A DNA stretch of 64,000 bases from Fidelibacterota bacterium (GCA_046861615.1 JBHHUS010000002.1:473-64472), one strand, 5' to 3'; positions 109 to 59,756 are shown, numbered from the stretch's first letter. Notes: generated by a model not told the origin, from the letters alone. Made by a program: numbers and translations.

Positions 109-1227
109 CTATTCAGCAATCGCCTGTTCCGGGGCCGTGTATTCCAGATCAAAAGCCGCTGCTACCCCAGCATGGGTTATCTGCTGCCGGTAGATATTCA
201 AACCCTTTAATAAGCCGGAATCATTCCGCAGGGCCGGCAGAATACCGGAATTAGCCAGTTTCTGCACGTAGGGATTAGTGGAATTGGTCAGGGCCGTGGT
301 GGAAGTAAAGGGAACGGCGCCGGGCATATTAGCCACACAATAGTGAATGACACCCTCCACTTCGTAAATGGGATCTTCGTGCGTGGTTGGTTTACAGGTT
401 TCGATGCAACCGCCCTGGTCCACGGCCACATCCACGATTACAGAACCGGGTTTCATCAGTTTCAGCATTTCCCGGGTAACCAGTTTCGGCGCTTTGGACC
501 CCACAATCAGCACGGCTCCCACTAACAAATCGGTCTGTTTCAACAATTCATTAATATTGTAGCGGTTACTGAAGATAGTGCGCACATTTTTAGGCATAAT
601 TTCGTCCAGATAACGCAGGCGGTTAATATTCACATCCAGCAGAAAGACATTGGCGCCCAGTCCCGCGGCGATCAGGGCGGCATTGGTACCCACCACGCCG
701 GCGCCGAGAATCGTGACTGTTCCCGGAGCTACACCCGGAACGCCACCTAACAGAATGCCGTGGCCTCCCTGGGCTTTTTCCAGATATTTGGCTCCTTCCT
801 GAACGGCCATGCGCCCGGCCACTTCGCTCATGGGAATCAATAACGGTAAGGAACCGTCCTCGAGCATGATCGTTTCATAAGCGATGGCGGTGGAACCGGT
901 ATCGCGGAATGACAAGGTCAGTGCCCGGTCGGCCGCAAAGTGAAAATAGGTGAACAGGGTCAGGTCCGGGTGGCACATTTCAATTTCCTGGGGTTGTGGT
1001 TCCTTCACCTTTACAACCAACTCCGACTGTCGGAAGATCTCCGCCGGTTTATCCACGATTTTACAGTTCACAGCGGAATAGTCTGCATCCGGGAAACCAC
1101 TGGGCACACCGGCACCCTTTTCTACCAGCACCTGATGACCGGCCCGGGTCAGATCCAGTGCCAGGTGCGGCGTCAGGGCCACCCGGTTTTCATTTTTCTT
1201 GATCTCTTTAGGAACCCCGATAATCAT
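109..1227 (-). CDS. ald: Alanine dehydrogenase
   Basis: 372-aa ORF. N-terminus [20 protein letters not shown] and the GAGVVG dinucleotide-binding motif are typical of the AlaDH/PNT family. Confidence 0.9.
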
Positions 1228-8189: not shown

Positions 8190-9500
8190 CTATACAATTT
8201 CTTCAACCGTTGTCCCTTCTTCCGGAACAGTTGCCGCCTGATTCGCTTTTTCGTTAGTCTCCACAAATGCCTGAACAGAATCATAAATCTTTTCGAGTGT
8301 CAATTCAGAGACCCCCTTGATTTTCAGTAATTTATCTTCATCTGATTTGAGTAAATCCGAAACATTCAGGACCCCGTTTTCAGATAATGGTTTCACGGCC
8401 CGGGCGGGAAAATTCGGAATATCAGCCAGGAGTGTATTTTGTTCGGTTTGTTTTCGTTCATATTCAATTTTTCCAAAGGCATCAATTCGATAACCAATGA
8501 CCCGGGAAGCCAGATTAATGTTAACTCCGCCCCTGCCGATTGCAGAGTCCAGTTCTTCATCATTAAAAATGGCAACACAGTATTTTTGATCGTCATCAAT
8601 ATAAAGATTCAACGGTTTGGCTGGTGACAACGCCCGGGAGATCAGAATTTCAGATTTCTCACTGAAATTGATGATATCAATTTTTTCGTTATTCAATTCC
8701 CTTACAATTGCCTGAATTCGACTTCCACGCATTCCCACACAAGCCCCTACGGGATCGATTCGGCGATCATGAGACTTAACAATGATCTTAGCCCGTTCAC
8801 CGGGGTGGCGGGCAATGGCGATGATTTCAATGACCCCATCCTCAATTTCAGGGACTTCCATTTCGAATAATTTGTAAAGAAAGTGGTTATCGCTGCGGGA
8901 TATAATAATATCCGGTCCGCGGGAGGAAACTTCAACAGATTTAATAATGGCCCGAATCGAATCACCCCGCCGGTAACGTTCCGAAAAAATCTGTTCCTTC
9001 CGGGGCATCCGCAATTCAGCGTGTTCAATATTTACAAAGACATTATCCCGCTGCACCTGATGAACGGTGCCGATGACGATTTCACCAACCCGCTGGGAAT
9101 AATCCTCGTAAATGTATTTTTTCTCGATATCCTGAATCCGCTGGGCAAAAAACTGTTTGGCCGTGTGGATGAGCCGCCGGCCAAAAATCGTCGGATCCAC
9201 TATCTCCACATAGGTATCACCAATCACTAGGTCGGTCAGTTCCGGATCCTTGGCCAATACATCGTCCAGGGTTATTTCACAGATCGGATCCTCGACCTCC
9301 TCAACAATTGTCCGTTCGGCGTAGATCTCAATTTCACCCTTATCAAGATTGACGATAACACTACAATTACTGGCATCACCGCGTTCCCTCTCAATCAGGT
9401 GTAAAAAAAGCTGTTCCAGGATGGATCCCAGCTCGGACCGCTCCACGTTTTTATCACGGGCGATCTCTGAAAATACTTCAATTAATTCCCGGTTAATCAA
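8190..9500 (-). CDS. nusA: Transcription termination/antitermination factor NusA
   Basis: 436-aa ORF with S1 and tandem KH regions (GACVGMRGSRIQ, IGRGGVNINLAS). Synteny is rimP-nusA-infB. Confidence 0.96.
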   Translation of the reverse strand: MINRELIEVFSEIARDKNVERSELGSILEQLFLHLIERERGDASNCSVIVNLDKGEIEIYAERTIVEEVEDPICEITLDDVLAKDPELTDLVIGDTYVEIVDPTIFGRRLIHTAKQFFAQRIQDIEKKYIYEDYSQRVGEIVIGTVHQVQRDNVFVNIEHAELRMPRKEQIFSERYRRGDSIRAIIKSVEVSSRGPDIIISRSDNHFLYKLFEMEVPEIEDGVIEIIAIARHPGERAKIIVKSHDRRIDPVGACVGMRGSRIQAIVRELNNEKIDIINFSEKSEILISRALSPAKPLNLYIDDDQKYCVAIFNDEELDSAIGRGGVNINLASRVIGYRIDAFGKIEYERKQTEQNTLLADIPNFPARAVKPLSENGVLNVSDLLKSDEDKLLKIKGVSELTLEKIYDSVQAFVETNEKANQAATVPEEGTTVEEIV

Positions 9501-23347: not shown

Positions 23348-23995
23348 TTATTGAACTTTATAAACTGCCAGCGTTTTTTCTCCGATTCCAATCTTACACC
23401 GATCACCTTTAGCGAGATTACCTACCCCCTCCGGTGTGCCGGTAAAGATCAGATCACCTTTTAAAACTGGAATATGTTGTAATAAATATCTTAGCAGTTC
23501 AGGAATCGAATACAGCATTTGATTACGATTACCCCGTTGTACGATTTGACCATTGATTTTAAACCAGAAATCCTGATTCCAGAGAGAGGAATGGGGATCA
23601 ATGAATTTCGTCACTACTGCCGCACCACTGAAAGATTTTGAAAACAACCACGGCAGTCGTTTTTCTTTTAAAGTCGTCTGAAAATTACGGTCGGTCAAAT
23701 CCAGCCCCAGAGCTAAGCCGGAGACTAAATTCAGTTCCTCCCCCGGGTTCACCGATTCGGTCATCGTTCCCACAAGCACTACAATTTCCAATTCATACTG
23801 AATAATTCGGTTCTTAGGTAATTTTATAATCGATCCGGTATTCAGCGCCGGAGTTGATTTTTGGAAAAAAAAAGGTTCATCCGGTACAAGATTATTCAAT
23901 TCCTTGGCATGGGCACGGTAATTACGACCGACACAATAAATATTGCGAACAGGAATAGAATTATCCTGCGGATCTTTGATTGAGTAATCCATCAT
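23348..23995 (-). CDS. Fumarylacetoacetate hydrolase family protein
   Basis: 215-aa ORF with an FAH-fold pattern (NY..HA.E......P..F.K..., E.E..VV.G, GDLIFTGTP.GVG). Confidence 0.82.
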   Translation of the reverse strand: MMDYSIKDPQDNSIPVRNIYCVGRNYRAHAKELNNLVPDEPFFFQKSTPALNTGSIIKLPKNRIIQYELEIVVLVGTMTESVNPGEELNLVSGLALGLDLTDRNFQTTLKEKRLPWLFSKSFSGAAVVTKFIDPHSSLWNQDFWFKINGQIVQRGNRNQMLYSIPELLRYLLQHIPVLKGDLIFTGTPEGVGNLAKGDRCKIGIGEKTLAVYKVQ

Positions 23996-25698
23996 TTGGA
24001 ATGTAAATCCTTTACTGCCAGTTTCACAATGTCGTTAAACGTATAGAGACCATCTGCGGTGACCCGCCCGATGGTTGTACTGGGCACACCAATGTTCATG
24101 CAAATTCGTTCAAATTCCATCAGATCGTCTTCAGTGATGGAAATCAAGGTCAAACCCTGGGTTTCACCAAATAACAATTCTTCTGGAGATAATTTCCGGG
24201 AATAATGAATTCTAGCCCCTATAGCTGAATTTTGATTCAACAATGCTTTGGCAATCGTAACAGCCAAACCACCACCTGAAACAGATCGTGCTGATTGAAT
24301 CAAGCCAGCTTGTATTCCCGTTAAAACGGCTTCTTGAATTCGGGATTCCATATTCAAATCCAGAGTTGGATGAACACCATGGTTGGAAGTGGACAGATGT
24401 TTTAAAAATAAACTGGTGCCTAATTCGCCCCGGTGACTGCCAAGAATTGAAATGAAATCACCAGAGCGTTGAAAATGTTGAGGGAAACGCTTTTGCTTAA
24501 TAAACAAACCGGCGGCTGCAACCCGGCATTGAATGCCGTCTTGCTTTTTAGTCGCCACTACCGAATTTGACATTTGAATGTTTAAATGATCGGCAGCTTT
24601 TTTCAGACCTTGAATTAATTCCGTTAATTTATTCGAACGTTTATTGGAAAGAATCAGGGCAGTTGCTGATTCCGGTTTTATCCCGCGACAAACCAATCGC
24701 CGGACAGCGCTGGAAAGAAAAGCCATGCCCCGTATTCCAGGATCGGAGATTTCAAGATGATCGTTATCATTCAAGGCAATACCAAATCCTTTTCCGCTTC
24801 TCAAGTTCCCAAAAACAACCTGTGATTCGATAAGCAGTTTAGCAGGAGCAACAACTGGATTCTCCCGGGATTGGGTCAAATGGACCAAGTTCTGAATGGC
24901 TGCTGAATAGTCCTTGATTTTAACTTTGGAATGCGTCTGGGAAACAGGAGCTGTTTTTATTTCCCTGTATGCGGTGTCTGCGTTTTGATTCCCTAATAGA
25001 GTTGTTATAATTGATTTTTGAATCCTGACTTTTTTTATCCCATCCTGCTCAAATGAGACCATTCCATCTTCCGTCAGGTGTCCCAACGAAAAAACCGAGC
25101 AACCTGTTGCTTCCCCCTGTTGACTCAATTCCTGATCAAATCCACCTTGCACCACAGTTAGAATACCCGCCTTTCGATGATTAAAAAACTCATCCTGCCC
25201 TTGAAATCCATTTAAACAGATACCGGTTGTACTTTGATCATGAGAAACTAATTTCAAGATCGAAAGCGGTAGTCCATTTTTAAACACTGGTTCAAGACTC
25301 ATTACTTCAGAACGGGAATATATTGATTTGACAAATTGCAGTAAGGATCTGCTTTTCTGAACAAAGAGCAATGTTCCATCCGTGACATTGATATCTGTTT
25401 TCGGTTGGAAAAGACGTTCCCCACCGATGATGGTTCCCAGATTTATCTTTAGCGTCAATCGTTTATCATATCCGCCGGCAATACACGATAATAATCCATC
25501 TGTCTTCAGAGGATCACTGGGATTCTGGCCGGCAAGTAAAATCATTGCACTATATTTATTTCTCCCGGATTCAATTATTGCCAATTCATTGCGCCATTTT
25601 AATAACGGTTTGCATACCAGAAATAAATTATTCAGAAAGGTAACTTCCTCCGGATTAGGGGTGCGTCCCAGGCTTTGTTTAATCCTTCTAAGATCCAT
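23992..25698 (-). CDS. PurL/AIR-synthase-related protein, apparently degenerate (active-site motifs not conserved)
   Basis: 568-aa ORF. The C-terminal half resembles the second half of FGAM synthase II (GDFISILG...ELGTSLFLK, SARSVSGGGLAVTIAK, LLFGETQG, IGRVT). The canonical SEHCSYK and HD.SDGG motifs are replaced. Confidence 0.6.
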   Translation of the reverse strand: MDLRRIKQSLGRTPNPEEVTFLNNLFLVCKPLLKWRNELAIIESGRNKYSAMILLAGQNPSDPLKTDGLLSCIAGGYDKRLTLKINLGTIIGGERLFQPKTDINVTDGTLLFVQKSRSLLQFVKSIYSRSEVMSLEPVFKNGLPLSILKLVSHDQSTTGICLNGFQGQDEFFNHRKAGILTVVQGGFDQELSQQGEATGCSVFSLGHLTEDGMVSFEQDGIKKVRIQKSIITTLLGNQNADTAYREIKTAPVSQTHSKVKIKDYSAAIQNLVHLTQSRENPVVAPAKLLIESQVVFGNLRSGKGFGIALNDNDHLEISDPGIRGMAFLSSAVRRLVCRGIKPESATALILSNKRSNKLTELIQGLKKAADHLNIQMSNSVVATKKQDGIQCRVAAAGLFIKQKRFPQHFQRSGDFISILGSHRGELGTSLFLKHLSTSNHGVHPTLDLNMESRIQEAVLTGIQAGLIQSARSVSGGGLAVTIAKALLNQNSAIGARIHYSRKLSPEELLFGETQGLTLISITEDDLMEFERICMNIGVPSTTIGRVTADGLYTFNDIVKLAVKDLHSK

Positions 25699-27993: not shown

Positions 27994-29206
27994 CCAGTAA
28001 ATATCTCCGTATAATATTCAAGGCGGCCTGACTAGTCATGAGTTTGTTGGTTTTTCTATCTGTGGTAAACCTGAATTCCCAGGTTTTGACACCACTACTG
28101 TAGGCCAAACCCACATAGACCAAACCCACTGGTTTCAGTTCTGTACCTCCTGTTGGTCCGGCAATACCGGTTGTTGATAAACCCAGATCGGTCTGAACAA
28201 GATCCCGCATGCCAAGGGCCATTTCAGCAGCCGTCTCCGGACTCACTGCTCCCACTGAATCAAGAGTTGATTTTTTCACTCCCAGGAGCGACATTTTTAC
28301 TTCATTACTATAGGCAACTACGCCACCGCGCATATAATCAGAACTTCCGGATGTATTAGTGATCCGGTCACCAATCAACCCTCCGGTACAGGATTCAGCC
28401 GTGGCAATAGTAAATTGTTTCTCACGAAGTAACGCTCCGACCGCATCCTCTAATTCGGTAGAATCGTTCCCATAATAGTATTTAGATATTTTGGGTCTGA
28501 TTTGATCAATAAACCCATTTAATTGCTTCTGATCGTCAGCTCTGATTCGTAGGTCCACACCGGTCATTTTTGGCAGGAAGGCAAATTCAATCGACGGGGA
28601 AGTCTTTAAATCATGATCCAGTTTCTGATACAAGGCTGATTCCATAATACCAGTTGTCCGTAATAAAATAGTCGCAATCCGATCATGGGAGTGATCACTA
28701 ATCCACGGTAATACTGTATTTTTCATCATAGCTTGCATTTCCGCAGGGACACCGGGCATGGCAAATAACTGGAAATCAGGATGGGTGAAATGCAGACCTC
28801 GTGCTGTGCCTACCGGATTAGGAATGACATTCCCCTTATCGGGGCGAAAGGCCTGATTTCGGTTCGATTCTGGAATCGTTTTACCTCGGCGTACAAATTT
28901 TTCAGTTAACTCTTCCCAGTATTCCGAATCAAAGACCGGTTCGGACTCAAAATATTCATACAGGGCCAAAGGCGTAATATCATCATGAGTAGGTCCTAGG
29001 CCACCGGTAGTCAGAATAACATCAACGGTTGAAAGATTATTGTTGAGGGCTCTTAAAATTGATTCTTTCTGATCATCAACGGTCAAATGCCAGATTACCT
29101 GCGCCCCGACACCGATAACAGCATTTCCAATCCAGGCCGCATTGGTATCAACCCGCGTTCCATTTAGTAATTCTGTTCCAATAGTGATTAGGCCAATTCT
29201 TATCAT
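27986..29206 (-). CDS. cinA: Competence/damage-inducible protein CinA (MoCF-binding + PncC nicotinamide-nucleotide amidase domains)
   Basis: The ORF extends to 29236, but the start was chosen at MIRIGLITIGTELL, which gives an ATGA overlap with the pgpA stop. CinA N- and C-domain motifs are present (TTGGLGPT.DD ; ESCTGG). Confidence 0.9.
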   Translation of the reverse strand: MIRIGLITIGTELLNGTRVDTNAAWIGNAVIGVGAQVIWHLTVDDQKESILRALNNNLSTVDVILTTGGLGPTHDDITPLALYEYFESEPVFDSEYWEELTEKFVRRGKTIPESNRNQAFRPDKGNVIPNPVGTARGLHFTHPDFQLFAMPGVPAEMQAMMKNTVLPWISDHSHDRIATILLRTTGIMESALYQKLDHDLKTSPSIEFAFLPKMTGVDLRIRADDQKQLNGFIDQIRPKISKYYYGNDSTELEDAVGALLREKQFTIATAESCTGGLIGDRITNTSGSSDYMRGGVVAYSNEVKMSLLGVKKSTLDSVGAVSPETAAEMALGMRDLVQTDLGLSTTGIAGPTGGTELKPVGLVYVGLAYSSGVKTWEFRFTTDRKTNKLMTSQAALNIIRRYLLDA

Positions 29207-32885: not shown

Positions 32886-33157
32886 GGTCGTGCACCCGTG
32901 TTTGGCAAACCTGGATTGATCAAAAGCCAGACCAGTTTACTCCACTTCAGCGGTCTTACGGCACACAATTCTAATCACTTACCGCTGCTCCCTTCCGGTC
33001 CTGACGGGATTGGGTGTAGAATCATTGCGAAAGATTGAAGTTTCAACGTCACTTTGTCATGAATTCAATCATCAGCATTTACCGGGCACAGGAATTCGAT
33101 CCTGCTATAGCGGGTTGCAGGTTACAGGGCACCGCTACCTCCCCATCTAGCACGACC
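32886..33157 (-). ncRNA. ffs: Signal recognition particle RNA, long (Alu-domain-containing, Bacillus-type) form
   Basis: The minus-strand 5' end GGTCGTGCTAGATGGGGAGGTAGCGGTGCCCTGTAACCTGCAACCCGCTATAGCAGG closely resembles my recollection of the B. subtilis scRNA Alu-domain 5' end. The S-domain motif GTCAGGACCGGAAGGGAGCAGC is present. The termini are complementary (GGTCGTGC/GCACGACC). It lies directly upstream of dnaX, as in Bacillus. Confidence 0.88.
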
Positions 33158-33213
33158 TAATTTTCAATAATCGTTCCTTTAACAGCTAATGGAAAAATGC
33201 TTTTCAGAAATAG

Positions 33214-33286
<73 letters not shown>

Positions 33287-33430: not shown

Positions 33431-33823
33431 TCAGTAAATGATCACTACTTTAATTTCGTTCACTTCATACCAATCCCAGAAATTAGATCGGTCCAGTTTA
33501 ATGAGACCGTCTTTGAAACTATACCGCACCCGCTTGCGGTAAAGCGACTCGGTAAACCATTCTGATTTATCCCGCTTATAATAGATAGCTACAAAGGGTG
33601 GGCTGTCCTCCTTCAAATCCGGAATTACCAGCGTACAAATGGCATCATTGAATTCACCCTCCGGTGTGATGAATTCCACTTTAGTAAAATGATAAACGCG
33701 TTTTATTAGCGATCTAAATTCAGTGTATTTCTCGGCTGCTTGACTGACCCCAAATGAATTAATCAACACTAATAAACAAATGACTGGGACAGAAACACGG
33801 ATTCCCCGCTTTAAATAATTCAC
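33431..33823 (-). CDS. Hypothetical secreted protein
   Basis: 130-aa ORF with a signal peptide ending in NSFGVSQA. It has an ATGA overlap with the upstream ORF. Confidence 0.6.
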   Translation of the reverse strand: MNYLKRGIRVSVPVICLLVLINSFGVSQAAEKYTEFRSLIKRVYHFTKVEFITPEGEFNDAICTLVIPDLKEDSPPFVAIYYKRDKSEWFTESLYRKRVRYSFKDGLIKLDRSNFWDWYEVNEIKVVIIY

Positions 33824-34248
33824 TTTTTCTTCTTACGAACAAATAAATGTCTCTTTTTTGTTTCTTCCTTTTTTCCTGATTCGGAGAGCTCTTTTGCTGC
33901 ATCAGGATCATCATTCTTTTTTTCTTTTTTGGACTCCAGACGGCGTTCAAAATCACTCACCTCCGGCGGGACTTCCGACTCAGTAGCTGTTTCAACCCTG
34001 ACCTCTGCCACATTAGCTTTTAAAAGCTGTCTCATTTTTTCCCGACGTTCTTTTGAATTGGATTTCAATTGGGTCAATAAATCCTGAACCTCCTGGTGAA
34101 AATCAGCAATCGTTCGCTCCAATCGCTGGATCAATTCATCCAGAAGCGGTTCCCCGTAACCTTCACCGATTGATTCCAACAAACCATTCATTTTTTCGTT
34201 GATGTATTGTCTGGTTTTTTCTATATCTTGTTCGCTGTTTTCTGCCAT
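33820..34248 (-). CDS. Hypothetical small acidic coiled-coil protein with Lys-rich tail (paralog of 14836..15165)
   Basis: 142-aa ORF that shares its conserved core and S.FERRLE tail with the 109-aa ORF at 14836..15165. Confidence 0.7.
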   Translation of the reverse strand: MAENSEQDIEKTRQYINEKMNGLLESIGEGYGEPLLDELIQRLERTIADFHQEVQDLLTQLKSNSKERREKMRQLLKANVAEVRVETATESEVPPEVSDFERRLESKKEKKNDDPDAAKELSESGKKEETKKRHLFVRKKKK

Positions 34249-34260
34249 TGTAACTCCAAA

Positions 34261-35055
34261 CTATCTTTTCAATTTTTCCATTTCTGCCTGGGTTAAGCCA
34301 TATTGACTTCGTGGAGAAGTAAGAATCATGATGGTATCATACACTTCCCCTCCGACTAAAGTACCATAGATTGCCCCCATGAATCGGTTGTTCCAAACCA
34401 TTTCAGCCCGGGGACTCGTTTGCCGATTCCAGACCTCCATCATTAAAAGACCCAATACTCCTGCCACACCGTACATACCCAATTTCCAGGTGGGGCGCTG
34501 AATAATTTTTTCCCGATAGGTAATCCGCTCCATTTCCCAGATTTTGATTTGTTCAACTGAAACAGGAGTTTGGATAGTCAAACTTCTATCGCCATAGGAC
34601 AATAAAGTTCCTTTAATTCTTTTTCCTGACCGATGCTTTATATTTACATACTGACCCACTGGAATGGAAGCCAGAATTTCATTGGTCCGTAAATAGGTCA
34701 GGTTTTTCCCGATTCTACTCCGTTCTTCATCACTTAGAGCGGGAATTCCCATCACGCGTAATTGCAGATCAGACCATTGCCGAAGTGAATAGGCTCGACG
34801 ACTAGCCTTTCTACGGGAAAATTCAACGAATACAATCCGGGCTTCGATCCGGTTAGGATTGATTTCAAAAAACTGGGCGCTTTCAAATCCGGGGATGTCA
34901 GTAAAGACCTCATAGTGAAGATTCTCAGCTGCATCAAGCGTATATCCGATAGCAGGGGTCAATGGAATGATTTCTCCCCGCTGTCCATATAGACATAGGC
35001 AGAAAAGAAATATTCCTGCCCTAACTGGTTGCTTCCAGTAGCTTAATAATTTCAT
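34261..35055 (-). CDS. Hypothetical membrane/exported protein
   Basis: 264-aa ORF with an N-terminal hydrophobic segment (AGIFLFCLCLYG) and two Gly-rich hydrophobic helices near the C-terminus. Its start overlaps the selenoprotein gene by 35 nt. Confidence 0.6.
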   Translation of the reverse strand: MKLLSYWKQPVRAGIFLFCLCLYGQRGEIIPLTPAIGYTLDAAENLHYEVFTDIPGFESAQFFEINPNRIEARIVFVEFSRRKASRRAYSLRQWSDLQLRVMGIPALSDEERSRIGKNLTYLRTNEILASIPVGQYVNIKHRSGKRIKGTLLSYGDRSLTIQTPVSVEQIKIWEMERITYREKIIQRPTWKLGMYGVAGVLGLLMMEVWNRQTSPRAEMVWNNRFMGAIYGTLVGGEVYDTIMILTSPRSQYGLTQAEMEKLKR

Positions 35056-35254
35056 TCAATTCCGGAAAACGACCAGAGGATTTTTTAGAAAAAATCAATT
35101 GTCCGTTTCTAACTACTTCGAACACCCCGCCTCCGGAAGGGATAAGCGTCAATCCCTGAATCCCATTTCCGTATTTCTGCAGTAATTCGGTAGCCATACT
35201 GGCCGCCCTGGGCAGGTAATTTCAAACGTTACAGTATTCGATTGAGATTTTCAT
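35021..35254 (-). CDS. SelW-like / Rdx-family selenoprotein (in-frame UGA = Sec at codon 11, CxxU motif)
   Basis: Read manually on the minus strand: ATG(35254) MKISIEYCNV-TGA(35224..35222)-NYLPRAASMATELLQKYGNGIQGLTLIPSGGGVFEVVRNGQLIFSKKSSGRFPELNEIIKLLEATS-TAG(35023..35021). The frame is continuous across the TGA. It matches the Rdx/SelW hallmarks IEYC..U/C...RA and GG.FEV...G.LI.SKK..GRFP. It is absent from the ORF track because of the TGA. Confidence 0.8.
35189..35207 (-). promoter_or_regulatory. Candidate bacterial SECIS hairpin
   Basis: mRNA 5'-GGCGGCC-AGUAU-GGCUACC-3' (one C-A mismatch, one G-U pair) starts 14 nt 3' of the UGA. A possible lower stem CUGC/GCAG flanks it. This was folded by hand only. 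Confidence 0.35.
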
Positions 35255-35367
35255 ATACTCAGCTTATGAACTAACGGTTGTCTTTACATTTGCATTTATC
35301 AAACCTGATCGCAAATCAAAGTAACCCCCATCTTTTCCTACCAGACGTAGGTTGTTTTGTAAAGGTA

Positions 35368-37632
35368 TCAGAAATTAAAGGCCGTTTCAATCGTTGTCTG
35401 TTTAACCGGTTCCAACCCGGTACCTACGTCACGATAAAACTGACGGAAATCCCAAATCAGACTTACACCAGCGCTCACCTCATAGCCCAAGCGGTACCCC
35501 AGAATAGTATTCACCGAAGGATTACCGAAATCAAAGGGATTCTTATCATTATTCCGCAGATAATAAGCCTCCGCTATACTGAGTTTTGGTATTTTTTCAG
35601 CATTAATGCTGACATTGGCACTAAAGCTGTTGAATTCAATTCCGTTATCAGCTTTCATATTAGTGTAGGAAGCAGCAAAACTGGCCAGATTAAAGAGATT
35701 TGCAGATGCTGATCCAAACATACCCTTAGTATCAATGTTAGAGTTAGGATCCTGGAATATCATTTGATCTTTAGTCCTTACCTGGGCAACACCACCGACA
35801 TAATCAGCCACCACTCTATTCAGATCATAACTCTGATCAAAGAATTGCGGCACGAAATAGCCCTGTTTAATCCGGTATTCAAAACTCACATTCAGGAATT
35901 TGAATAAACTTGCCCGGATACCCGGTATCGTAATTCCCGTACCGTCCATTTTTTCCCTAGAATAAATATCATTACCGCTGACAGCCGGGAAAATCAGTTT
36001 ATTATACTCGGTGTATACATCCAATGACAGGGACTTTTTACGGAGAATGGGATATCCCAGATCTAAAGTGAATCCCTGGACAGTAGCTTTATTATCCTTC
36101 AAACTGAAGGGAATACCTTTCAAATTCTCAACATCACTACCACCGGCGTCCGAAGATAGTTCATTATCTCCATCTCCATCGATATCCCACCCTGTAGCCG
36201 GTTCTTTATCTCCGCCATTATAATCGGGGATACCATCACCATCCGTATCATTCCAAAGATGTTTATTATCAGGAAAATCATCAAAAACATCCGGGTAATT
36301 ATCATTATCAGTATCTTTCAAACCGGAGAATTGGTTTATGTCCATTATAAAGTTTGTACCAATGGTTAAAGGTAGGCGTTTCGAAACTTTATAAGTACCT
36401 CGTAATCCCATCAAGGTGCCACCACGTTTAAAATCTTTCACATTAGCCAGGAATAATTCGGTCCCATATTTCCCGAAATTCAAACCAGCATTGACTCCAA
36501 CCCGTCGGATGGAAGGGAACTCCATCATATTGGAATAACCGGCTAATAATCCCCCGTAACCTAAAGTCACGCTGGGAAGCGAGCCCCACTGGAACCAGAA
36601 AGGATCAGATTTCTCACCCCATCGAATGTAAAGGAATTTATCAACAAAATCAGAAGCTTCATCCCATTCGTTTTTGCGAATATTTCCTTCGTTATCGATG
36701 TAAAGGACCAGATCAAGGCCAATTCCCAGTTTGCCGAATTTTAGCTCTGGTCGCAAAGCCAGTTGATTATAAATCTGTCCATCAATAGTGGCGGAACCGA
36801 TTCCCAACCCCATATTAAAGGGTTTCTTACCTTTAGGTTCCGGTTTTTCCTGTGGTTGTTCTGCTTCCGGGGCTTCAGGCGCTTCCGGAGCTTCTTCCAT
36901 TATTTCCTTTGGTTGTGGTTCCGGCTCAGGTTCCGGTTGAACTTCTTCTTCTACTTTTTCAGGTTCTACTTCTTCCGGTTGCTCTTCAGCCGGTTCCTCT
37001 TCGGCCGCTTCTTCTTCCGTTGGTTGTTCTCCTGCCTCTACTTCAGGATCCTGGGGATAATCTCCCGGTTCCGCCGGTGCCTGCATCAAATTTCCCAGGG
37101 CGTTGGAAATTGCCTTTTGACCGGGTCCTACCGAAACAGTCTGTCCGCTAATAGTGTTAAAAACATCAAATGTGCCCGTTTTCCCAATAAATTTATCCAT
37201 TCCGGAGGGGTCCACAATGGCTGCAAATTCGGTTCCTTTTACAGATGCAACGGAGACCGGCGTTTCCACGCGAAAGGTTTTGGTTCGTCCCTCTTTCTTC
37301 ACATCATTCAGGATGGTACCCCGCTCCATATTCAGACTGCGGGTATTATCAGTCTCAACAAATTGAAAATCAGTTTTCTCGCGAATTTTTACTACCGAGC
37401 GATCATCCAGGAAAATAACAACCGCGAAACCATTGTCACCTACCCGGATGGCATCCCCGTTTGAAATCGCCTGACCTGGTTTTACCTGTAAATCGTAAGT
37501 CGTCTTTCCCAATTGTTTTAAAAGTACTTCACCGTTAGCTTTCATAACCCGGGCAATTGATTCACCCATTAAGGTGCTTAATAAAACAGTCAATCCTAGA
37601 AAAATAATTTTAAATATTTTTATTAGTTTCAT
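35368..37632 (-). CDS. Outer-membrane beta-barrel protein with N-terminal FecR-like domain, Glu/Pro-rich linker and thrombospondin type-3-like Ca-binding repeats
   Basis: 754-aa ORF with four parts: a signal peptide, a FecR-like segment (G....GD.I..G.NGFAVV.F.D.S...I...T.F), an acidic EP-rich low-complexity stretch, and D-rich repeats (DTDNDNYPD...DTDGDGIPD...DIDGDGDN). The C-terminal region has alternating hydrophobicity and ends in ...AFNF. Confidence 0.7.
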   Translation of the reverse strand: MKLIKIFKIIFLGLTVLLSTLMGESIARVMKANGEVLLKQLGKTTYDLQVKPGQAISNGDAIRVGDNGFAVVIFLDDRSVVKIREKTDFQFVETDNTRSLNMERGTILNDVKKEGRTKTFRVETPVSVASVKGTEFAAIVDPSGMDKFIGKTGTFDVFNTISGQTVSVGPGQKAISNALGNLMQAPAEPGDYPQDPEVEAGEQPTEEEAAEEEPAEEQPEEVEPEKVEEEVQPEPEPEPQPKEIMEEAPEAPEAPEAEQPQEKPEPKGKKPFNMGLGIGSATIDGQIYNQLALRPELKFGKLGIGLDLVLYIDNEGNIRKNEWDEASDFVDKFLYIRWGEKSDPFWFQWGSLPSVTLGYGGLLAGYSNMMEFPSIRRVGVNAGLNFGKYGTELFLANVKDFKRGGTLMGLRGTYKVSKRLPLTIGTNFIMDINQFSGLKDTDNDNYPDVFDDFPDNKHLWNDTDGDGIPDYNGGDKEPATGWDIDGDGDNELSSDAGGSDVENLKGIPFSLKDNKATVQGFTLDLGYPILRKKSLSLDVYTEYNKLIFPAVSGNDIYSREKMDGTGITIPGIRASLFKFLNVSFEYRIKQGYFVPQFFDQSYDLNRVVADYVGGVAQVRTKDQMIFQDPNSNIDTKGMFGSASANLFNLASFAASYTNMKADNGIEFNSFSANVSINAEKIPKLSIAEAYYLRNNDKNPFDFGNPSVNTILGYRLGYEVSAGVSLIWDFRQFYRDVGTGLEPVKQTTIETAFNF

Positions 37633-37714: not shown

Positions 37715-40513
37715 TCACAGAATATTTTGCCTTAAATAATCCCGAACCAGAACTGCAATTGATGTATATCTGAGACCTGTGGCTTTCTCCATTCCTATTT
37801 CACAGGTCCGGCTAGTGGAGTAACCAAAGGAATTATTCACAACTGATTTCACTTCGTCTGCCTCCCGCTGGGTAGCACTGCGGGTTAGCTCCGGGAATAA
37901 CAGTCCCCGATCCCCGGCAAAAGCACAACAGTTCCAATTCTCTGGTAAAATGACTTTTTCAGCACACTGGTAGCCAATCTCTACAAGAAGTCTTTTCATC
38001 CCCATTTTTACGGTTGAACAGGTGGGATGCAAAATAATTTCCCGGTTCAATTTTTCTCGGACTGCTTCCTGCTTAAGGCAATTATTCAGGAAGGGAACGA
38101 TATCAACAATCGTCAGAGACTCCCATTTTTTTAACGCTTCACCTTCCAGTTCTTTTCCTACCTGTAACAATTTATAAGAACAGGGAGACGTATCTACTAA
38201 GACCGGAATGGTGCCCTCTTGGCTGGATTCATATAAAATATTGATTGTCCGGAGGACCATCTTTTTATCAGCCTTTTCATAACCTTTTGAGTTATAAGGC
38301 GTACCACAACAGGTGGTTTCCAATCCTGCTGGGAAAATGAGTTGAAAACCACAAATTTGGCCAATTTCTAATAGCATATCGGCCAGTGACTCTTTTCCGG
38401 AAGTGCCACTAAATATACGATTGATACAGGCAGTATAATAAATCCACTGGTTTGAATGTTCCGTCGGTTGGAAATGAACCGGTGGAGCAGTTTTCGGAAG
38501 AACACGGTCCCAGCAAGGAATTTTCCCTGATAATGACTTGTTAATCAAGCGAGTGAAACGTTCCAGGAAAGAAAAACCGGTAATTCTGCTGATCCCATGA
38601 GAAATATCCAGTATTTTCCGGAGAATTAATTGGGTTAAAGCAAAATTATTAACCGTCCAGAGGCTGACCTGCTCAGCAAATCCAGAGTGCTGTTCAGTCC
38701 GCATCGCTTTTACAAAAGAACCGGTATTAATATTCACCGGACAGGCTGTTTCGCAAAGCGCGTCCACAGCACAGGTGTCAAAACTGGAAAACCGATTATC
38801 GTTGGCCACTTTAAATTGAAAAGCGTGATTTAATTTTAACTCCCGGGCGATGATGATTCTCTGGCGGGGAGTCAGGGTCAACTCCCGGGACGGACAAACC
38901 CGTTCACAAAAACCGCATTCCACACATAGATCTATTTTCTCATTTACCTGTGGAATCTGTTTCAGGTTTTTCAAGTGGGTTTTATCATCCCGGTTTAATA
39001 ATACCCCTGGATTGAGAATATCTTCAGGATCAGCCAATGTTTTAATATGCCACATGATTTCATATAGCTCTCCGCCCCATTCCGATTCCACAAAAGGCGC
39101 CATATTCCGTCCGGTACCATGCTCAGCTTTCAACGAACCATTAAAACGATCCACTGTCATCGAAACCAAATCCTTCATCAAACCGTCAAATGCTTTAACA
39201 CCTTCAGATTGGTTTAAGTCAATTGAAGTAACGAAATGCAGATTTCCATCCTTGGCATGTCCGAAAATAACACTATCATTGTAGGACCATTTCTTAAAGA
39301 TCGACTTTAATTCAGTCACGACCTCCGGCAGGTCGGTGAACTGGTAGCAAATATCTTCCGTAATGATGCTGGTACCGCTTTTCCGCAAGGATCCGACCGT
39401 CGGATACAAACCCTTCCTTATATTCCACAATACAGTACGGAGTGGATCTTCCCGGGTCATTCCCGCAACAAATTCCCCCTCCATCGATTGCAGGGTTCGA
39501 ATTATTTCCTGTTCCTGACGGGATAAATCCTGGATGTCGTCATTCTGAAGTTCAATCAGCAAAGCGGTGGTATCATCCTGAACTAAGTCCAGCCCATAAG
39601 GGGCATTTTGAACATATTTAGCCGTCATAAGGGAGGCTGAATCCATCAATTCCACCGCTGCCGCCTGATGCTCAATCAAGACAGGAATCGATTCAGTTGC
39701 AATTTTAGGATTCCGGAAAAATACCAGTCCCGTTGATTTATTCACAGGATCCGGTAATGTATTTAATGCCAACGAAGATAGAAAAGCCAGCGTCCCTTCT
39801 CCACCAACCAGTAAATGAGAGAAAATATCCAGGGGATGTTCAAAATCCAGAAAAGCATTAAGTGAATAGCCTAATGTATTCTTTATCTTATACTTACGAC
39901 GTATTTTATTCTTTAACTCAGCCTTAGATTCAATTTGTTTTTGGGCTTTAATTAATCCTTCACAGAGGACTCTTTCGCCGGAAACAAAACGGGAATAATC
40001 AGTGCTGATTGAAGTATCGTAAATGTGGCCGTTAGGCAGAATGAAGCGAATATGTTTTAAAGTATGGTAGGCATTATTCTGAACCCCACAAACCATTCCG
40101 GAAGCATTGTTTGAAATTATGCCACCAATCATGGCTGAATTAATTGAGGCTGGATCGGGACCGATTTTTCGACGATAAGACCGTAAACTTTGGTTAGCCC
40201 TGGCACCGATGACACCCGGCTGAAGTTTAATAGCCTTACCCTGGTCCAGTATTTCAATTCTATCCCAGTTCCGGACGACTTCTGCTATGATTCCCTCCGT
40301 CACTGACTGACCTGAAAGCGAAGTACCACCGGTCCGGAAGGTTACTGGAATATGGTTTTTATGAGCATAGCGTAATAATTCCTGGACTTCCTGCTCGTTG
40401 GCAGGTCGGACGACCGCCCGGGGAACAAGACGGTACAGACTGGCATCTCGTGAGTAGGCCAGCCGGTCAATGAGTCTTTCTGACCAGCTGGTCAGGTTTG
40501 GTTTTTTCTCCAT
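37715..40513 (-). CDS. FAD-linked oxidase fused to Fe-S and CCG cysteine-rich domains (YdiJ / D-2-hydroxyacid dehydrogenase-like)
   Basis: 932-aa ORF with an N-terminal FAD-binding PCMH-type domain, a ferredoxin-type motif CVECGFCERVCP plus a second Cys cluster (C...CETACP), and C-terminal Cys-rich repeats. Confidence 0.82.
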   Translation of the reverse strand: MEKKPNLTSWSERLIDRLAYSRDASLYRLVPRAVVRPANEQEVQELLRYAHKNHIPVTFRTGGTSLSGQSVTEGIIAEVVRNWDRIEILDQGKAIKLQPGVIGARANQSLRSYRRKIGPDPASINSAMIGGIISNNASGMVCGVQNNAYHTLKHIRFILPNGHIYDTSISTDYSRFVSGERVLCEGLIKAQKQIESKAELKNKIRRKYKIKNTLGYSLNAFLDFEHPLDIFSHLLVGGEGTLAFLSSLALNTLPDPVNKSTGLVFFRNPKIATESIPVLIEHQAAAVELMDSASLMTAKYVQNAPYGLDLVQDDTTALLIELQNDDIQDLSRQEQEIIRTLQSMEGEFVAGMTREDPLRTVLWNIRKGLYPTVGSLRKSGTSIITEDICYQFTDLPEVVTELKSIFKKWSYNDSVIFGHAKDGNLHFVTSIDLNQSEGVKAFDGLMKDLVSMTVDRFNGSLKAEHGTGRNMAPFVESEWGGELYEIMWHIKTLADPEDILNPGVLLNRDDKTHLKNLKQIPQVNEKIDLCVECGFCERVCPSRELTLTPRQRIIIARELKLNHAFQFKVANDNRFSSFDTCAVDALCETACPVNINTGSFVKAMRTEQHSGFAEQVSLWTVNNFALTQLILRKILDISHGISRITGFSFLERFTRLINKSLSGKIPCWDRVLPKTAPPVHFQPTEHSNQWIYYTACINRIFSGTSGKESLADMLLEIGQICGFQLIFPAGLETTCCGTPYNSKGYEKADKKMVLRTINILYESSQEGTIPVLVDTSPCSYKLLQVGKELEGEALKKWESLTIVDIVPFLNNCLKQEAVREKLNREIILHPTCSTVKMGMKRLLVEIGYQCAEKVILPENWNCCAFAGDRGLLFPELTRSATQREADEVKSVVNNSFGYSTSRTCEIGMEKATGLRYTSIAVLVRDYLRQNIL

Positions 40514-58025: not shown

Positions 58026-59756
58026 TCAATCTCCCTCACTGAACGGGGGATTCTCAAAAATAGAAATAAAAAACACCGCCACCTGATTTGGTTCTAACGG
58101 ATCAGAAGAATAAATAAATTTTTCCACAACAATATTTCGACCGGATAAGAACAATTTTTGGATCACCCCCAAAATCATTGGTTTGGTACTAACCTGTAAA
58201 ATAACCGGTACCTGAGAGTAACCGGCAAAATTCTTGGGAGTCAGCGTTTTGTAATTAACCAGCGCTGAATCAATCCTAATGGTGTTAAAGAATTCACTGC
58301 TATTGATTGGCCGATAGTTTGCGAGTGGTTGGATTTGTTTTGGTTTCAACACAATTTTATGCTCATATCCACCGCAACAATCAATCTTCACGGTCTGGGA
58401 TGATTTAATTTCACCGATAGAATCCAGTGGTAGGAATACATCTTTAGTACCACCGAAAATCAACAGCATAGTATCTGCTTCAGAGATAATAGTAAATAAA
58501 TCATTTTCATTGAATAATTTTAAAGTATTCGAAACCGATTTCAGAATGTTCACCGAATAACGGCGATATGTTTTTATCACCGAAGATGTCAAAAAATCAC
58601 TTTCCGATCCAACCATTAGTTTAGCGGGCTGAGTTTTATTCGAGCCTGATTTGTCACTGGGTTCCGGGGGAGCCACTTTATTCATGTAAATGATACCCAC
58701 TAAAAAGGCCAGTAAAATAATTGTTATCCCGATGGAGTACACTTTTTGTATCCGCTTTGATTTTACTTTTTTAACAACTCGTTTTGGTTTGACGCTCTTC
58801 TTTATGGAAGTGGGTACTGGTGTTTTCGGCTCCGGAGGAGGTTTAACCGGAATGGACTGAATTCCTTGATCTCCGAAAAAATTCAACTGGTTCTGCTTAG
58901 GTTTCACTCCGGCATAGAGTGCGCGGGTAATGGTTAAAAGATGCTTCGGAATAGTTTTATCAACTGGAATTCCCTCTAAATCCAGCCCTTCCAAACCTGA
59001 CAGGATGGTAGAATTTAACGATTTGAAATTGTCCAACCATTTATCAGAAAATCCGGCACCAATATAAATAGAATAATCCGGTAGATCTTCTTCACTAAGA
59101 GACCCGGTAGTCGGCGTCACTTTCCATTGTCCCCGGAGTAATTTTAATGAACCGGAAGCTGAACCGTTTTCAGATTGTGAATGGAAACGAACCGCGTTTC
59201 CTTTGGGGAATAACACCATGCAACCTTTTTCCGGTTCCAGACCAAAAAATACACTCGATTCAGTCCCCATCCACTCCGGAGCTGCTCCCTGCTCAGCAAT
59301 GATTAATTTAATCGGTTCGATTAATTTAGATTGAATTGCCAGAAGTATTAACTGAGGCCGGTCATATCGATAAATACGACCGAATAATGCCAATTTTGAA
59401 TCGGGAACGGAACCCCATCTTTGTTTAAAGGTCCATTCCGCCAAGGCCCAACCATCGGAGTCACCCATTGTTTTGTCCATTTGGATGGATACGGTCCTAA
59501 CAAAATCGTTGGGAAGTGTGACGTAAATTTGTTCCCGTTCCAAGGAGACCTCATCCCGAATCTGTTGGAGAGCCGAACTGAATACAGAAACCAATTCCGC
59601 TTCAGAATTCCATACACCTTTCAATGGATGAGGAAACGGTTTATAAGAAATACCGGTCAGTAAGGAACCCAGTTCAGTATGGGTCCACTGTGCGCATAGT
59701 AAATGATGATCAGTTATTGCAAGATGGATCACGTACCAGGACCTTACTGGTCCCAA
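58026..59756 (-). CDS. Hypothetical bitopic membrane protein (cytoplasmic N-domain, Pro/Lys linker, TM, external C-domain)
   Basis: 576-aa ORF with a single TM helix VYSIGITIILLAFLVGIIYM. The architecture is reminiscent of PilM-PilN/O-type assembly-platform fusions, but no motif can be verified by eye. Confidence 0.6.
   Translation of the reverse strand: MGPVRSWYVIHLAITDHHLLCAQWTHTELGSLLTGISYKPFPHPLKGVWNSEAELVSVFSSALQQIRDEVSLEREQIYVTLPNDFVRTVSIQMDKTMGDSDGWALAEWTFKQRWGSVPDSKLALFGRIYRYDRPQLILLAIQSKLIEPIKLIIAEQGAAPEWMGTESSVFFGLEPEKGCMVLFPKGNAVRFHSQSENGSASGSLKLLRGQWKVTPTTGSLSEEDLPDYSIYIGAGFSDKWLDNFKSLNSTILSGLEGLDLEGIPVDKTIPKHLLTITRALYAGVKPKQNQLNFFGDQGIQSIPVKPPPEPKTPVPTSIKKSVKPKRVVKKVKSKRIQKVYSIGITIILLAFLVGIIYMNKVAPPEPSDKSGSNKTQPAKLMVGSESDFLTSSVIKTYRRYSVNILKSVSNTLKLFNENDLFTIISEADTMLLIFGGTKDVFLPLDSIGEIKSSQTVKIDCCGGYEHKIVLKPKQIQPLANYRPINSSEFFNTIRIDSALVNYKTLTPKNFAGYSQVPVILQVSTKPMILGVIQKLFLSGRNIVVEKFIYSSDPLEPNQVAVFFISIFENPPFSEGD

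Follow-up and report, generated by a model that had tools for sequence, protein, structure and literature searches.

A SelW-like gene with a predicted in-frame selenocysteine codon in a Marinimicrobia genome

What is encoded in the space between two open reading frames (ORFs) near the middle of a 64,000-nucleotide (nt) stretch of DNA from a Fidelibacterota bacterium (GCA_046861615.1, JBHHUS010000002.1:473-64472)? This whole stretch is termed the window throughout. The gap without a convincing ORF to which the original prediction had drawn attention is real: the flanking ORFs end at position 35055 and start at position 35368, and mechanical ORF listing offers only a 58-residue ORF in between. 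Comparison of the DNA with its relatives gives us high confidence that positions 35254 to 35021 of the minus strand hold the gene for a 77-residue SelW-like protein of Marinimicrobia (SAR406, Fidelibacterota), and that its codon 11, a UGA, is recoded to selenocysteine (Sec). This reading is carried by the reading frame itself, by the conservation of the UGA, by coding conservation on both sides of it, and by a covarying hairpin with a G-U-N loop located 22 nt past the UGA. By analogy with known elements, the hairpin probably acts as a bacterial selenocysteine insertion sequence (SECIS).

Read from position 35254, the minus strand begins with ATG AAA ATC TCA ATC GAA TAC TGT AAC GTT TGA. After this TGA (35224..35222), 66 sense codons follow in the same frame before a TAG at 35023..35021 (translation MKISIEYCNV*NYLPRAASMATELLQKYGNGIQGLTLIPSGGGVFEVVRNGQLIFSKKSSGRFPELNEIIKLLEATS*). 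With the TGA decoded, the complete gene (35021..35254, minus strand) yields a product of 77 residues (MKISIEYCNV-U-NYLPRAAS...EATS) and then the TAG stop. Its start codon is the ATG at 35252..35254; 66 of 81 distinct relatives also have ATG at this place, four have GTG, and two have TTG. A TGT at 35231..35233 encodes Cys8, the first residue of a CxxU redox motif, and the TGA, as the predicted Sec codon, specifies residue 11. The frame and its boundaries agree to the base with those originally proposed.

Membership of the product in the Rdx (SelW/SelT/SelH) family is established both by profile and by fold. Unless stated otherwise, profile scores were taken with the TGA read as Cys. The Pfam Rdx profile (PF10262) is matched from position 1 to position 73 of its 74 positions with 86.2 bits (cutoff 22.6; E = 1.7e-24), and with 79.1 bits (E = 2.9e-22) when an X is placed at the TGA. 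The NCBIfam equivalog NF041051 (SelTWH_Campy, “SelT/SelW/SelH family (seleno)protein”) gives 101.3 bits versus a cutoff of 88, and TIGR02174 (CXXU_selWTH) gives 69.8 bits versus a cutoff of 34.2. With scores above these curated cutoffs, the assignment to the SelW/Rdx family that had been made from the sequence is borne out.

Among proteins of solved structure, sequence matches are found to the bacterial SelW-related proteins 2fa8, 2ojl, 2p0g, 3dex, 2oka, and 2obk. The CxxC motif of these Cys-form homologs, which reads CTQC in 2fa8 and 2ojl, aligns with C8-N-V-U11. Cys8 is invariant in alignments of the relatives and pairs with the first Cys of the motif in 2fa8 and 2ojl, and the TGA aligns with the second Cys, which is the second redox position where it had been predicted to lie. 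The fold was read from the AlphaFold model of a homolog (P0004) that is 73-74% identical to the window protein and carries W at the Sec position. This model, with a predicted local distance difference test (pLDDT) score of 95.2, has the thioredoxin-like order beta1 (residues 2-8), CxxU loop, alpha1 (14-28), beta2, beta3, beta4, and alpha2. Compared with the six solved bacterial proteins, it gives template modeling (TM) scores of 0.92-0.95 at a root-mean-square deviation of 0.8 A, and MIEN1, thioredoxin, and mouse SelW appear lower in its list of structure matches. Projected onto the window protein, the model places the residue specified by the UGA at the second position of Cys8-x-x-Sec11, in the loop that connects strand beta-1 to helix alpha-1.

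The TGA is almost universally retained among relatives of the gene. At least 580 relatives came out of a scan of one genome per species; the 80 best were retrieved and, together with loci from exact look-ups, make up a set of 88 loci. The original prediction had called for a count of Cys versus Sec at this position, and the outcome is TGA in 87 of the 88 loci, TCA in one, and a Cys codon in none. More than 10 phyla are represented, including Marinimicrobia/Fidelibacterota, Chloroflexota, Actinomycetota, Desulfobulbia, Planctomycetota, KSB1, SAR324, Bacillota, and others. The closest among the fetched relatives are Marinimicrobia (SAR406, Fidelibacterota), with 59-77% identity by tblastn. One locus with the TGA (L036) lies on the complete Fidelibacterota chromosome CP070787.1. 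Furthermore, the window protein recurs unchanged, TGA included, in four independent assemblies, and four more carry the TGA at 84-88% identity; the recurrence of the same TGA in independent assemblies argues against a base-calling error.

The sole relative without TGA (L090:252-254) lies on a contig of about 2.3x coverage (ERZ24794642 NODE_917285) and has TCA, which would give Ser and a CxxS motif. Its SECIS hairpin is intact and identical to that of another locus in the collection (L089). The TCA may reflect either a misread base or a mutation of very recent origin.

Coding conservation extends to both sides of the TGA. When the eight codons 5' of the TGA were compared among 81 distinct sequences, pairwise diversity at codon positions 1, 2, and 3 was 0.31, 0.25, and 0.60. 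Synonymous and nonsynonymous codon differences stood at 8677:9512 in the gene frame versus 1307:14674 and 2520:13611 in the two other frames. Downstream of the TGA, the frame is open and conserved in relatives, and an in-frame synonymous excess and third-position diversity are seen there as well as upstream. Both the alignments and the synonymous excess show that coding conservation continues past the TGA, as had been claimed.

The hairpin GG-C-GGCCA-[GUA]-UGGCU-A-CC lies within the coding sequence at 35189..35207 (minus strand) and starts 14 nt 3' of the UGA, exactly where the original prediction had drawn it. Its shape is that of five base pairs (bp), a 1x1 mismatch, and 2 bp. The conserved core helix joins 35204..35200 with 35196..35192, and the apical loop GUA occupies 35199..35197. 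The 54 nt around the UGA could be aligned without gaps in 80 distinct sequences, and in this alignment the 8-bp helix (columns 24-31 with 35-42) has 79.5% of its cells paired, versus 67.8% after shuffling and 17-46% in slid registers. For covariation, the helix scores 0.379, versus 0.172 for shuffled alignments (none of 500 reaches the observed value) and at most 0.132 when slid. The 5-bp core (columns 27-31 with 35-39) is also predicted independently by RNAalifold, and one of its pairs occurs as CG in 23 sequences, GC in 18, AU in 15, UA in six, GU in six, and UG in two. The apical loop reads GUN in 57 and GGN in 17 of the 80 sequences.

A published model of bacterial SECIS (bSECIS) elements specifies an apical loop of 3-9 nt, a stem of at least 4 bp, a G in the first two loop positions, a distance of 16-37 nt from UGA to loop, and a minimum free energy of -7.5 kcal/mol or lower (PMC13188914). 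The window hairpin, with its UGA-to-loop spacing of 22 nt, falls within every geometric limit of this model, and 65% of the relatives reach the energy threshold. Nine homologs from plasmids and chromids, with a Cys codon (TGT/TGC) in place of the TGA, served as a negative control. Of the 80 Sec forms, 55 have the full in-register core helix of five pairs, versus none of the nine Cys forms (Fisher p = 8e-5), and the mean number of core pairs is 4.58 versus 2.56, a result that is supporting but not decisive because the control is small and phylogenetically narrow. The SECIS role that had been proposed for the hairpin is favored by its conserved register in relatives, by covariation, and by the absence of a full helix from the Cys forms.

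The core pairs couple codons 18 and 21 of the gene (35192..35204), and the two encoded residues, both in helix alpha-1, covary. Among the 80 relatives, the combinations at residues 18 and 21 include Ala/Ala in 36, Val/Thr in nine, Ser/Glu in six, Ser/Gly in four, and Thr/Val in two. This is a clear case of a protein sequence being shaped by RNA pairing.

These features suggest how the gene would be expressed. With the ribosome at the UGA, the hairpin just downstream in the mRNA would bind SelB, carrying GTP and Sec-tRNA(Sec), through its apical G-U loop. SelB would then deliver selenocysteine at the UGA in competition with release factor 2, and the ribosome would go on to unwind and translate the hairpin, whose nucleotides encode residues 16-22 of helix alpha-1. 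In the finished protein, the Cys8/Sec11 pair would alternate between the reduced Cys-SH/Sec-SeH state and a selenenylsulfide in a redox reaction that depends on thiols. By analogy with its relatives, the product is probably a small thiol/selenol oxidoreductase, and the function of SelW-like proteins has been described as unclear (PMC1088965).

Several points weigh against a SECIS hairpin and a Sec codon at this locus. The folding energy of the hairpin is no better than that of dinucleotide shuffles (z = 0.27 and 0.41). Because single-sequence stability is at the level of shuffled sequences, the hairpin becomes evidence only through comparison with relatives, and single-sequence folding was dropped as an argument for a SECIS. 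The minimal hairpin (nt 18-36) has a predicted energy of -7.1 kcal/mol, which is just short of -7.5; values of -8.7 with flanks and -12.1 with the lower stem are obtained, and none of these beats shuffles. The element is also short, with a conserved core of 5 bp and a loop of 3 nt. No match to any Rfam SECIS family was found, either in the whole window at gathering thresholds or in 35100..35300 at permissive E-values, where the only match was to a CRISPR repeat and arose by chance (E = 8.9). Overall, the bSECIS geometry holds, the energy is borderline, and no Rfam family recognizes the element. The Cys-form control, moreover, consists of nine sequences mostly from GC-rich Proteobacteria, two of which reach four of the five core pairs.

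A further difficulty concerns the machinery for Sec insertion, because neither the 64-kb window nor the related loci (1.27 Mb in total) yielded selA, selB, selD, or a gene for tRNA-Sec. ARAGORN detected no tRNA-Sec in the window and 90 loci; the tRNAs of the window are those for Arg, Leu, Ala, and Ser. None of 20 window ORFs examined with NCBIfam is SelA, SelB, or SelD. They have housekeeping functions, and the sole SelB-like match is IF-2. A motif search and tblastn with the E. coli SelD, SelA, and SelB proteins, run on the window and the 1.27 Mb of loci, likewise recovered only IF-2 and other translational GTPases. On Sec use in Marinimicrobia/SAR406, the literature search turned up only a table in which three SAR406 single-cell genomes are listed with an “orphan” SelD and no other selenium-utilization genes (PMC5029168). 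The presence of SelD in these genomes (PMC5029168) counts in favor of Sec use. Read literally, the “orphan SelD” entries would suggest Marinimicrobia that have neither SelA nor SelB, but the listing is likely due to the incompleteness of single-cell genomes.

A 568-residue protein of the window (23992..25698, minus strand) matches only the C-terminal part of PurL, with 110 bits versus a cutoff of 648, and is not SelD. For its counterpart in one relative (L005), an AIRS_C domain is recorded.

The absence of Sec genes from the sequences searched, together with the “orphan” SelD of the SAR406 single-cell genomes (PMC5029168), leaves room for a UGA that is recoded to something other than Sec, either to Cys by a SECIS/SelB-type route or to Trp by near-cognate read-through. 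Such decoding would suit a lineage that has SelD and no canonical SelA/SelB pathway. However, the hairpin has the features of a bSECIS that binds SelB, namely G-U in a small apical loop, the appropriate spacing, and covariation, and this same gene, hairpin included, is found in recorded Sec users such as marine Deltaproteobacteria (PMC8318568). The “orphan SelD” genomes may be incomplete, and recoding to Cys has an additional weakness in that a TGT or TGC would suffice without any recoding signal, yet none of the 88 loci has one. We consider non-Sec recoding improbable. Similarly, there is little likelihood that Marinimicrobia keep a UGA/SECIS gene in the absence of canonical SelA and SelB and decode the UGA by a route not yet described.

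Other explanations dispense with recoding by a hairpin altogether. The real gene might be the 58-residue ORF (35021..35197, minus strand) that begins at internal Met20, with MKISIEYCNV-TGA forming an untranslated leader. This ORF is given by mechanical ORF listing and by public gene calls, and scores 53 bits on Pfam Rdx by itself. However, it lacks strand beta-1 and the entire redox motif, and a profile match from model position 1 is obtained only when the upstream MKISIEYCNV part is included. The codons before the TGA show a coding pattern in the gene frame alone, which indicates that the shorter ORF is not the conserved gene. Its start codon is poorly kept as well: among 81 relatives, the codon at Met20 is ATG in 19, TTG in 30, CTG in 20, GTG in six, ACG in four, CTA in one, and CTT in one, so that 26 have the non-start codons CTG, ACG, CTA, or CTT. 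The ATG at 35197 sits in the loop and 3' stem of the SECIS hairpin. This ORF, which gene callers substitute for the actual gene, is very unlikely to represent the true product. Equally far-fetched is the notion that the TGA arose by faulty sequencing or assembly, or that a TGT or TGC was recently mutated to it and left a pseudogene. A single substitution does separate TGA from either Cys codon, and the relative on the low-coverage contig has TCA there, but the TGA recurs in the four assemblies with identical protein, in the four at 84-88% identity, and in nearly all loci of the wider set, and the frame downstream is open and conserved.

Finally, TGA might be reassigned to an amino acid throughout this organism (genetic code table 4 or 25), as the full-length catalogue proteins with Trp at the Sec position could be taken to imply. 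These Trp residues, which come from short contigs, prove to be TGA codons read by a code-4 gene model; the DNA has TGA, and the gene for one such protein (P0001) does not yield the stored sequence under table 11. In the window itself, the stops of the 46 ORFs of at least 150 residues are TGA in 19, TAA in 17, and TAG in 10. The ORFs ending in TGA include those for IF-2, isocitrate dehydrogenase, and DnaJ, whose profile matches reach the end, or almost the end, of the profile, so that these housekeeping genes are intact under table 11; the TGA codons at 29203..29205 and 58026..58028 likewise act as ordinary stops. When the window was scanned for read-through TGA codons with a nearby Cys, the selW-like gene was the only credible case. 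Because TGA is the commonest stop of the long ORFs in the window, the code is standard (table 11) and recoding is local to the selW-like gene. The argument in the original prediction that a TGA-reassigned code does not explain the locus is therefore sound, and such a code is hardly conceivable here.

In public protein catalogues, this selenoprotein family is represented systematically by artefacts. A protein search returned 80 relatives (including P0001-P0060) in two artefactual forms. One consists of 54-58-residue fragments that start at the residue equivalent to Met20, among them a database protein (P0005) identical to the 58-residue ORF. The other consists of “full-length” proteins of 73-79 residues with Trp at the Sec position. 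Given that the Trp stems from the code-4 reading of TGA, the motif C-x-x-W in an Rdx protein of a metagenome catalogue marks an unrecognized Sec codon.

Related loci were also encountered in cultured organisms. In Thermomicrobium roseum (L102; plasmid NC_011961.1, 408080-408463), the “Rdx family protein” coding sequence of RefSeq is the truncated form (148..330 of the locus), and an in-frame TGA, an upstream IEYCTS motif, and a hairpin with a GUG loop lie just 5' of it. Cytobacillus spongiae (L103; NZ_CP089998.1, 370560-370925) has the same layout of TGA and hairpin, with a GUU loop, and no gene is listed there. From their sequences, both look like unrecognized selenoprotein genes.

Proteins of this type have long been known. 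Bacterial SelW-like CxxU proteins with a SECIS inside the ORF were described in 2005 from the Sargasso Sea (PMC1088965) and subsequently from Global Ocean Sampling (GOS) metagenomes (PMC2398784), and they are the most abundant marine bacterial selenoproteins (PMC1088965, PMC2398784). The window gene shares their length class, the CxxU motif, the bSECIS inside the ORF whose small apical loop contains a G, and the marine setting. It also shares the excess of Sec over Cys, which is 87:0 among the 88 nearest loci here and was 48:7 and 427:56 for the SelW-like forms in the literature (PMC1088965, PMC2398784). There is no substantive difference from the metagenomic proteins, except that Marinimicrobia/SAR406 are not named as hosts in the literature found.

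Comparisons with other members of the family reveal greater distances. The proteins of the Cys-form structures (2fa8, which is Agrobacterium Atu0228, and 2obk, 2ojl, 2oka, 2p0g, and 3dex) have the same fold and motif position at 32-39% identity. They differ in having CxxC rather than CxxU, a C-terminal extension (about 105 versus 77 residues), and a Trp-rich helix alpha-1 (CNWLLRAGWMAQE), and their mRNAs lack a complete in-register hairpin. Mammalian SelW (2npb) and MIEN1 (2ljk) belong to the Rdx family as well, carry CxxU or CxxC at the beta1-alpha1 junction, and in the case of SelW include a selenoprotein, but they are distant from the window protein (TM 0.66-0.78, 19-30% identity). The mammalian-type system also differs in its signal, since eukaryotic SelW relies on a SECIS in the 3' untranslated region, with a kink-turn quartet and SBP2, and not on an in-ORF hairpin read by SelB (PMC1088965, PMC13188914).

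Like the SECIS of E. coli fdhF and bSECIS elements in general, the window hairpin is a stem-loop inside the ORF, right after the UGA, with a small loop in which G is followed by U. It differs from them in its very small size and in having no Rfam counterpart. The fdhF SECIS also has a bulged U, for which there is no obvious equivalent in the window hairpin.

The neighbors of the gene are all on the minus strand. They follow one another as a 932-residue fusion protein with flavin adenine dinucleotide (FAD)-binding and Fe-S domains, a 754-residue FecR-domain protein, the selW-like gene, ORFs of 264, 142, and 130 residues, tRNA-Ala, a large signal recognition particle (SRP) RNA, and dnaX. This order is kept in about 22-27 species-level genomes of Marinimicrobia, and the FecR-domain gene precedes the selW-like gene in about 25 Marinimicrobia loci. 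Neighborhood clustering of 79 loci identified no functional partner, in that no neighbor recurs across phyla and synteny is seen only within Marinimicrobia. A 113-nt intergenic spacer (35255..35367) separates the FecR-domain gene from the start codon. A promoter scan of 34700..35700 found nothing, and this spacer holds no sigma-70-like promoter, which makes it possible that the selW-like gene is co-transcribed with the upstream FecR-domain gene.

Some observations were made on the surrounding features in their own right. The 754-residue protein (35368..37632, minus strand) carries a FecR domain at its N terminus, along with a long low-complexity stretch that is acidic and rich in Pro and Glu (…EPEPEPQPKE…). 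Just past the stop of its gene, at 35337..35351, is a small, perfect 5-bp palindromic hairpin (CCTAC-CAGAC-GTAGG). Its terminator-like look comes from a T-run that only the plus strand has, and it is therefore unlikely to end transcription of the minus-strand genes. The 932-residue fusion (37715..40513, minus strand) combines a GlcD-like FAD-binding oxidase with a GlcF/GlpC-like Fe-S cluster domain and resembles D-2-hydroxyglutarate dehydrogenase of the YdiJ type, with all scores far below equivalog cutoffs.

On the other side of the selW-like gene, the ORFs of 264 residues (34261..35055), 142 residues (33820..34248), and 130 residues (33431..33823), all on the minus strand, are syntenic with it across many Marinimicrobia. 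No NCBIfam family matches them, and their equivalents in relatives have no recorded Pfam hit. As listed, the 264-residue ORF starts within the selenoprotein gene and shares its final 35 nt. Its counterparts are shorter, with products of 245 residues in a close relative (L006) and about 217 residues in some distant relatives, and its true start may therefore be further downstream. The SRP RNA is of the large (Bacillus) type and full-length (32888..33155, minus strand; 138 bits, model positions 1-256 of 256). A tRNA-Ala(CGC) gene (33213..33286, minus strand) adjoins it, between the cluster with the selW-like gene and dnaX.

Because the gene belongs to the most common and long-known family of marine bacterial selenoproteins, it is an annotation gap in that family rather than a discovery, and existing knowledge of selenoproteins is unchanged by it. 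Close relatives are already named “selenoprotein W-related protein” by the Joint Genome Institute (JGI). For annotation, the value of the finding is that the locus should be listed as a selenoprotein of 77 residues, and not as a gap or a 58-residue fragment. The hairpin additionally provides a worked example of a minimal bacterial SECIS whose pairing visibly constrains the amino acids of the helix that it encodes. For the organisms concerned, the gene and its relatives indicate that selenocysteine is almost certainly decoded by this member of the Marinimicrobia and by about 30 other species-level genomes of the phylum. Sec decoding in this abundant deep-ocean phylum would imply a need for selenium, and would put the “orphan SelD” listing of SAR406 in context.

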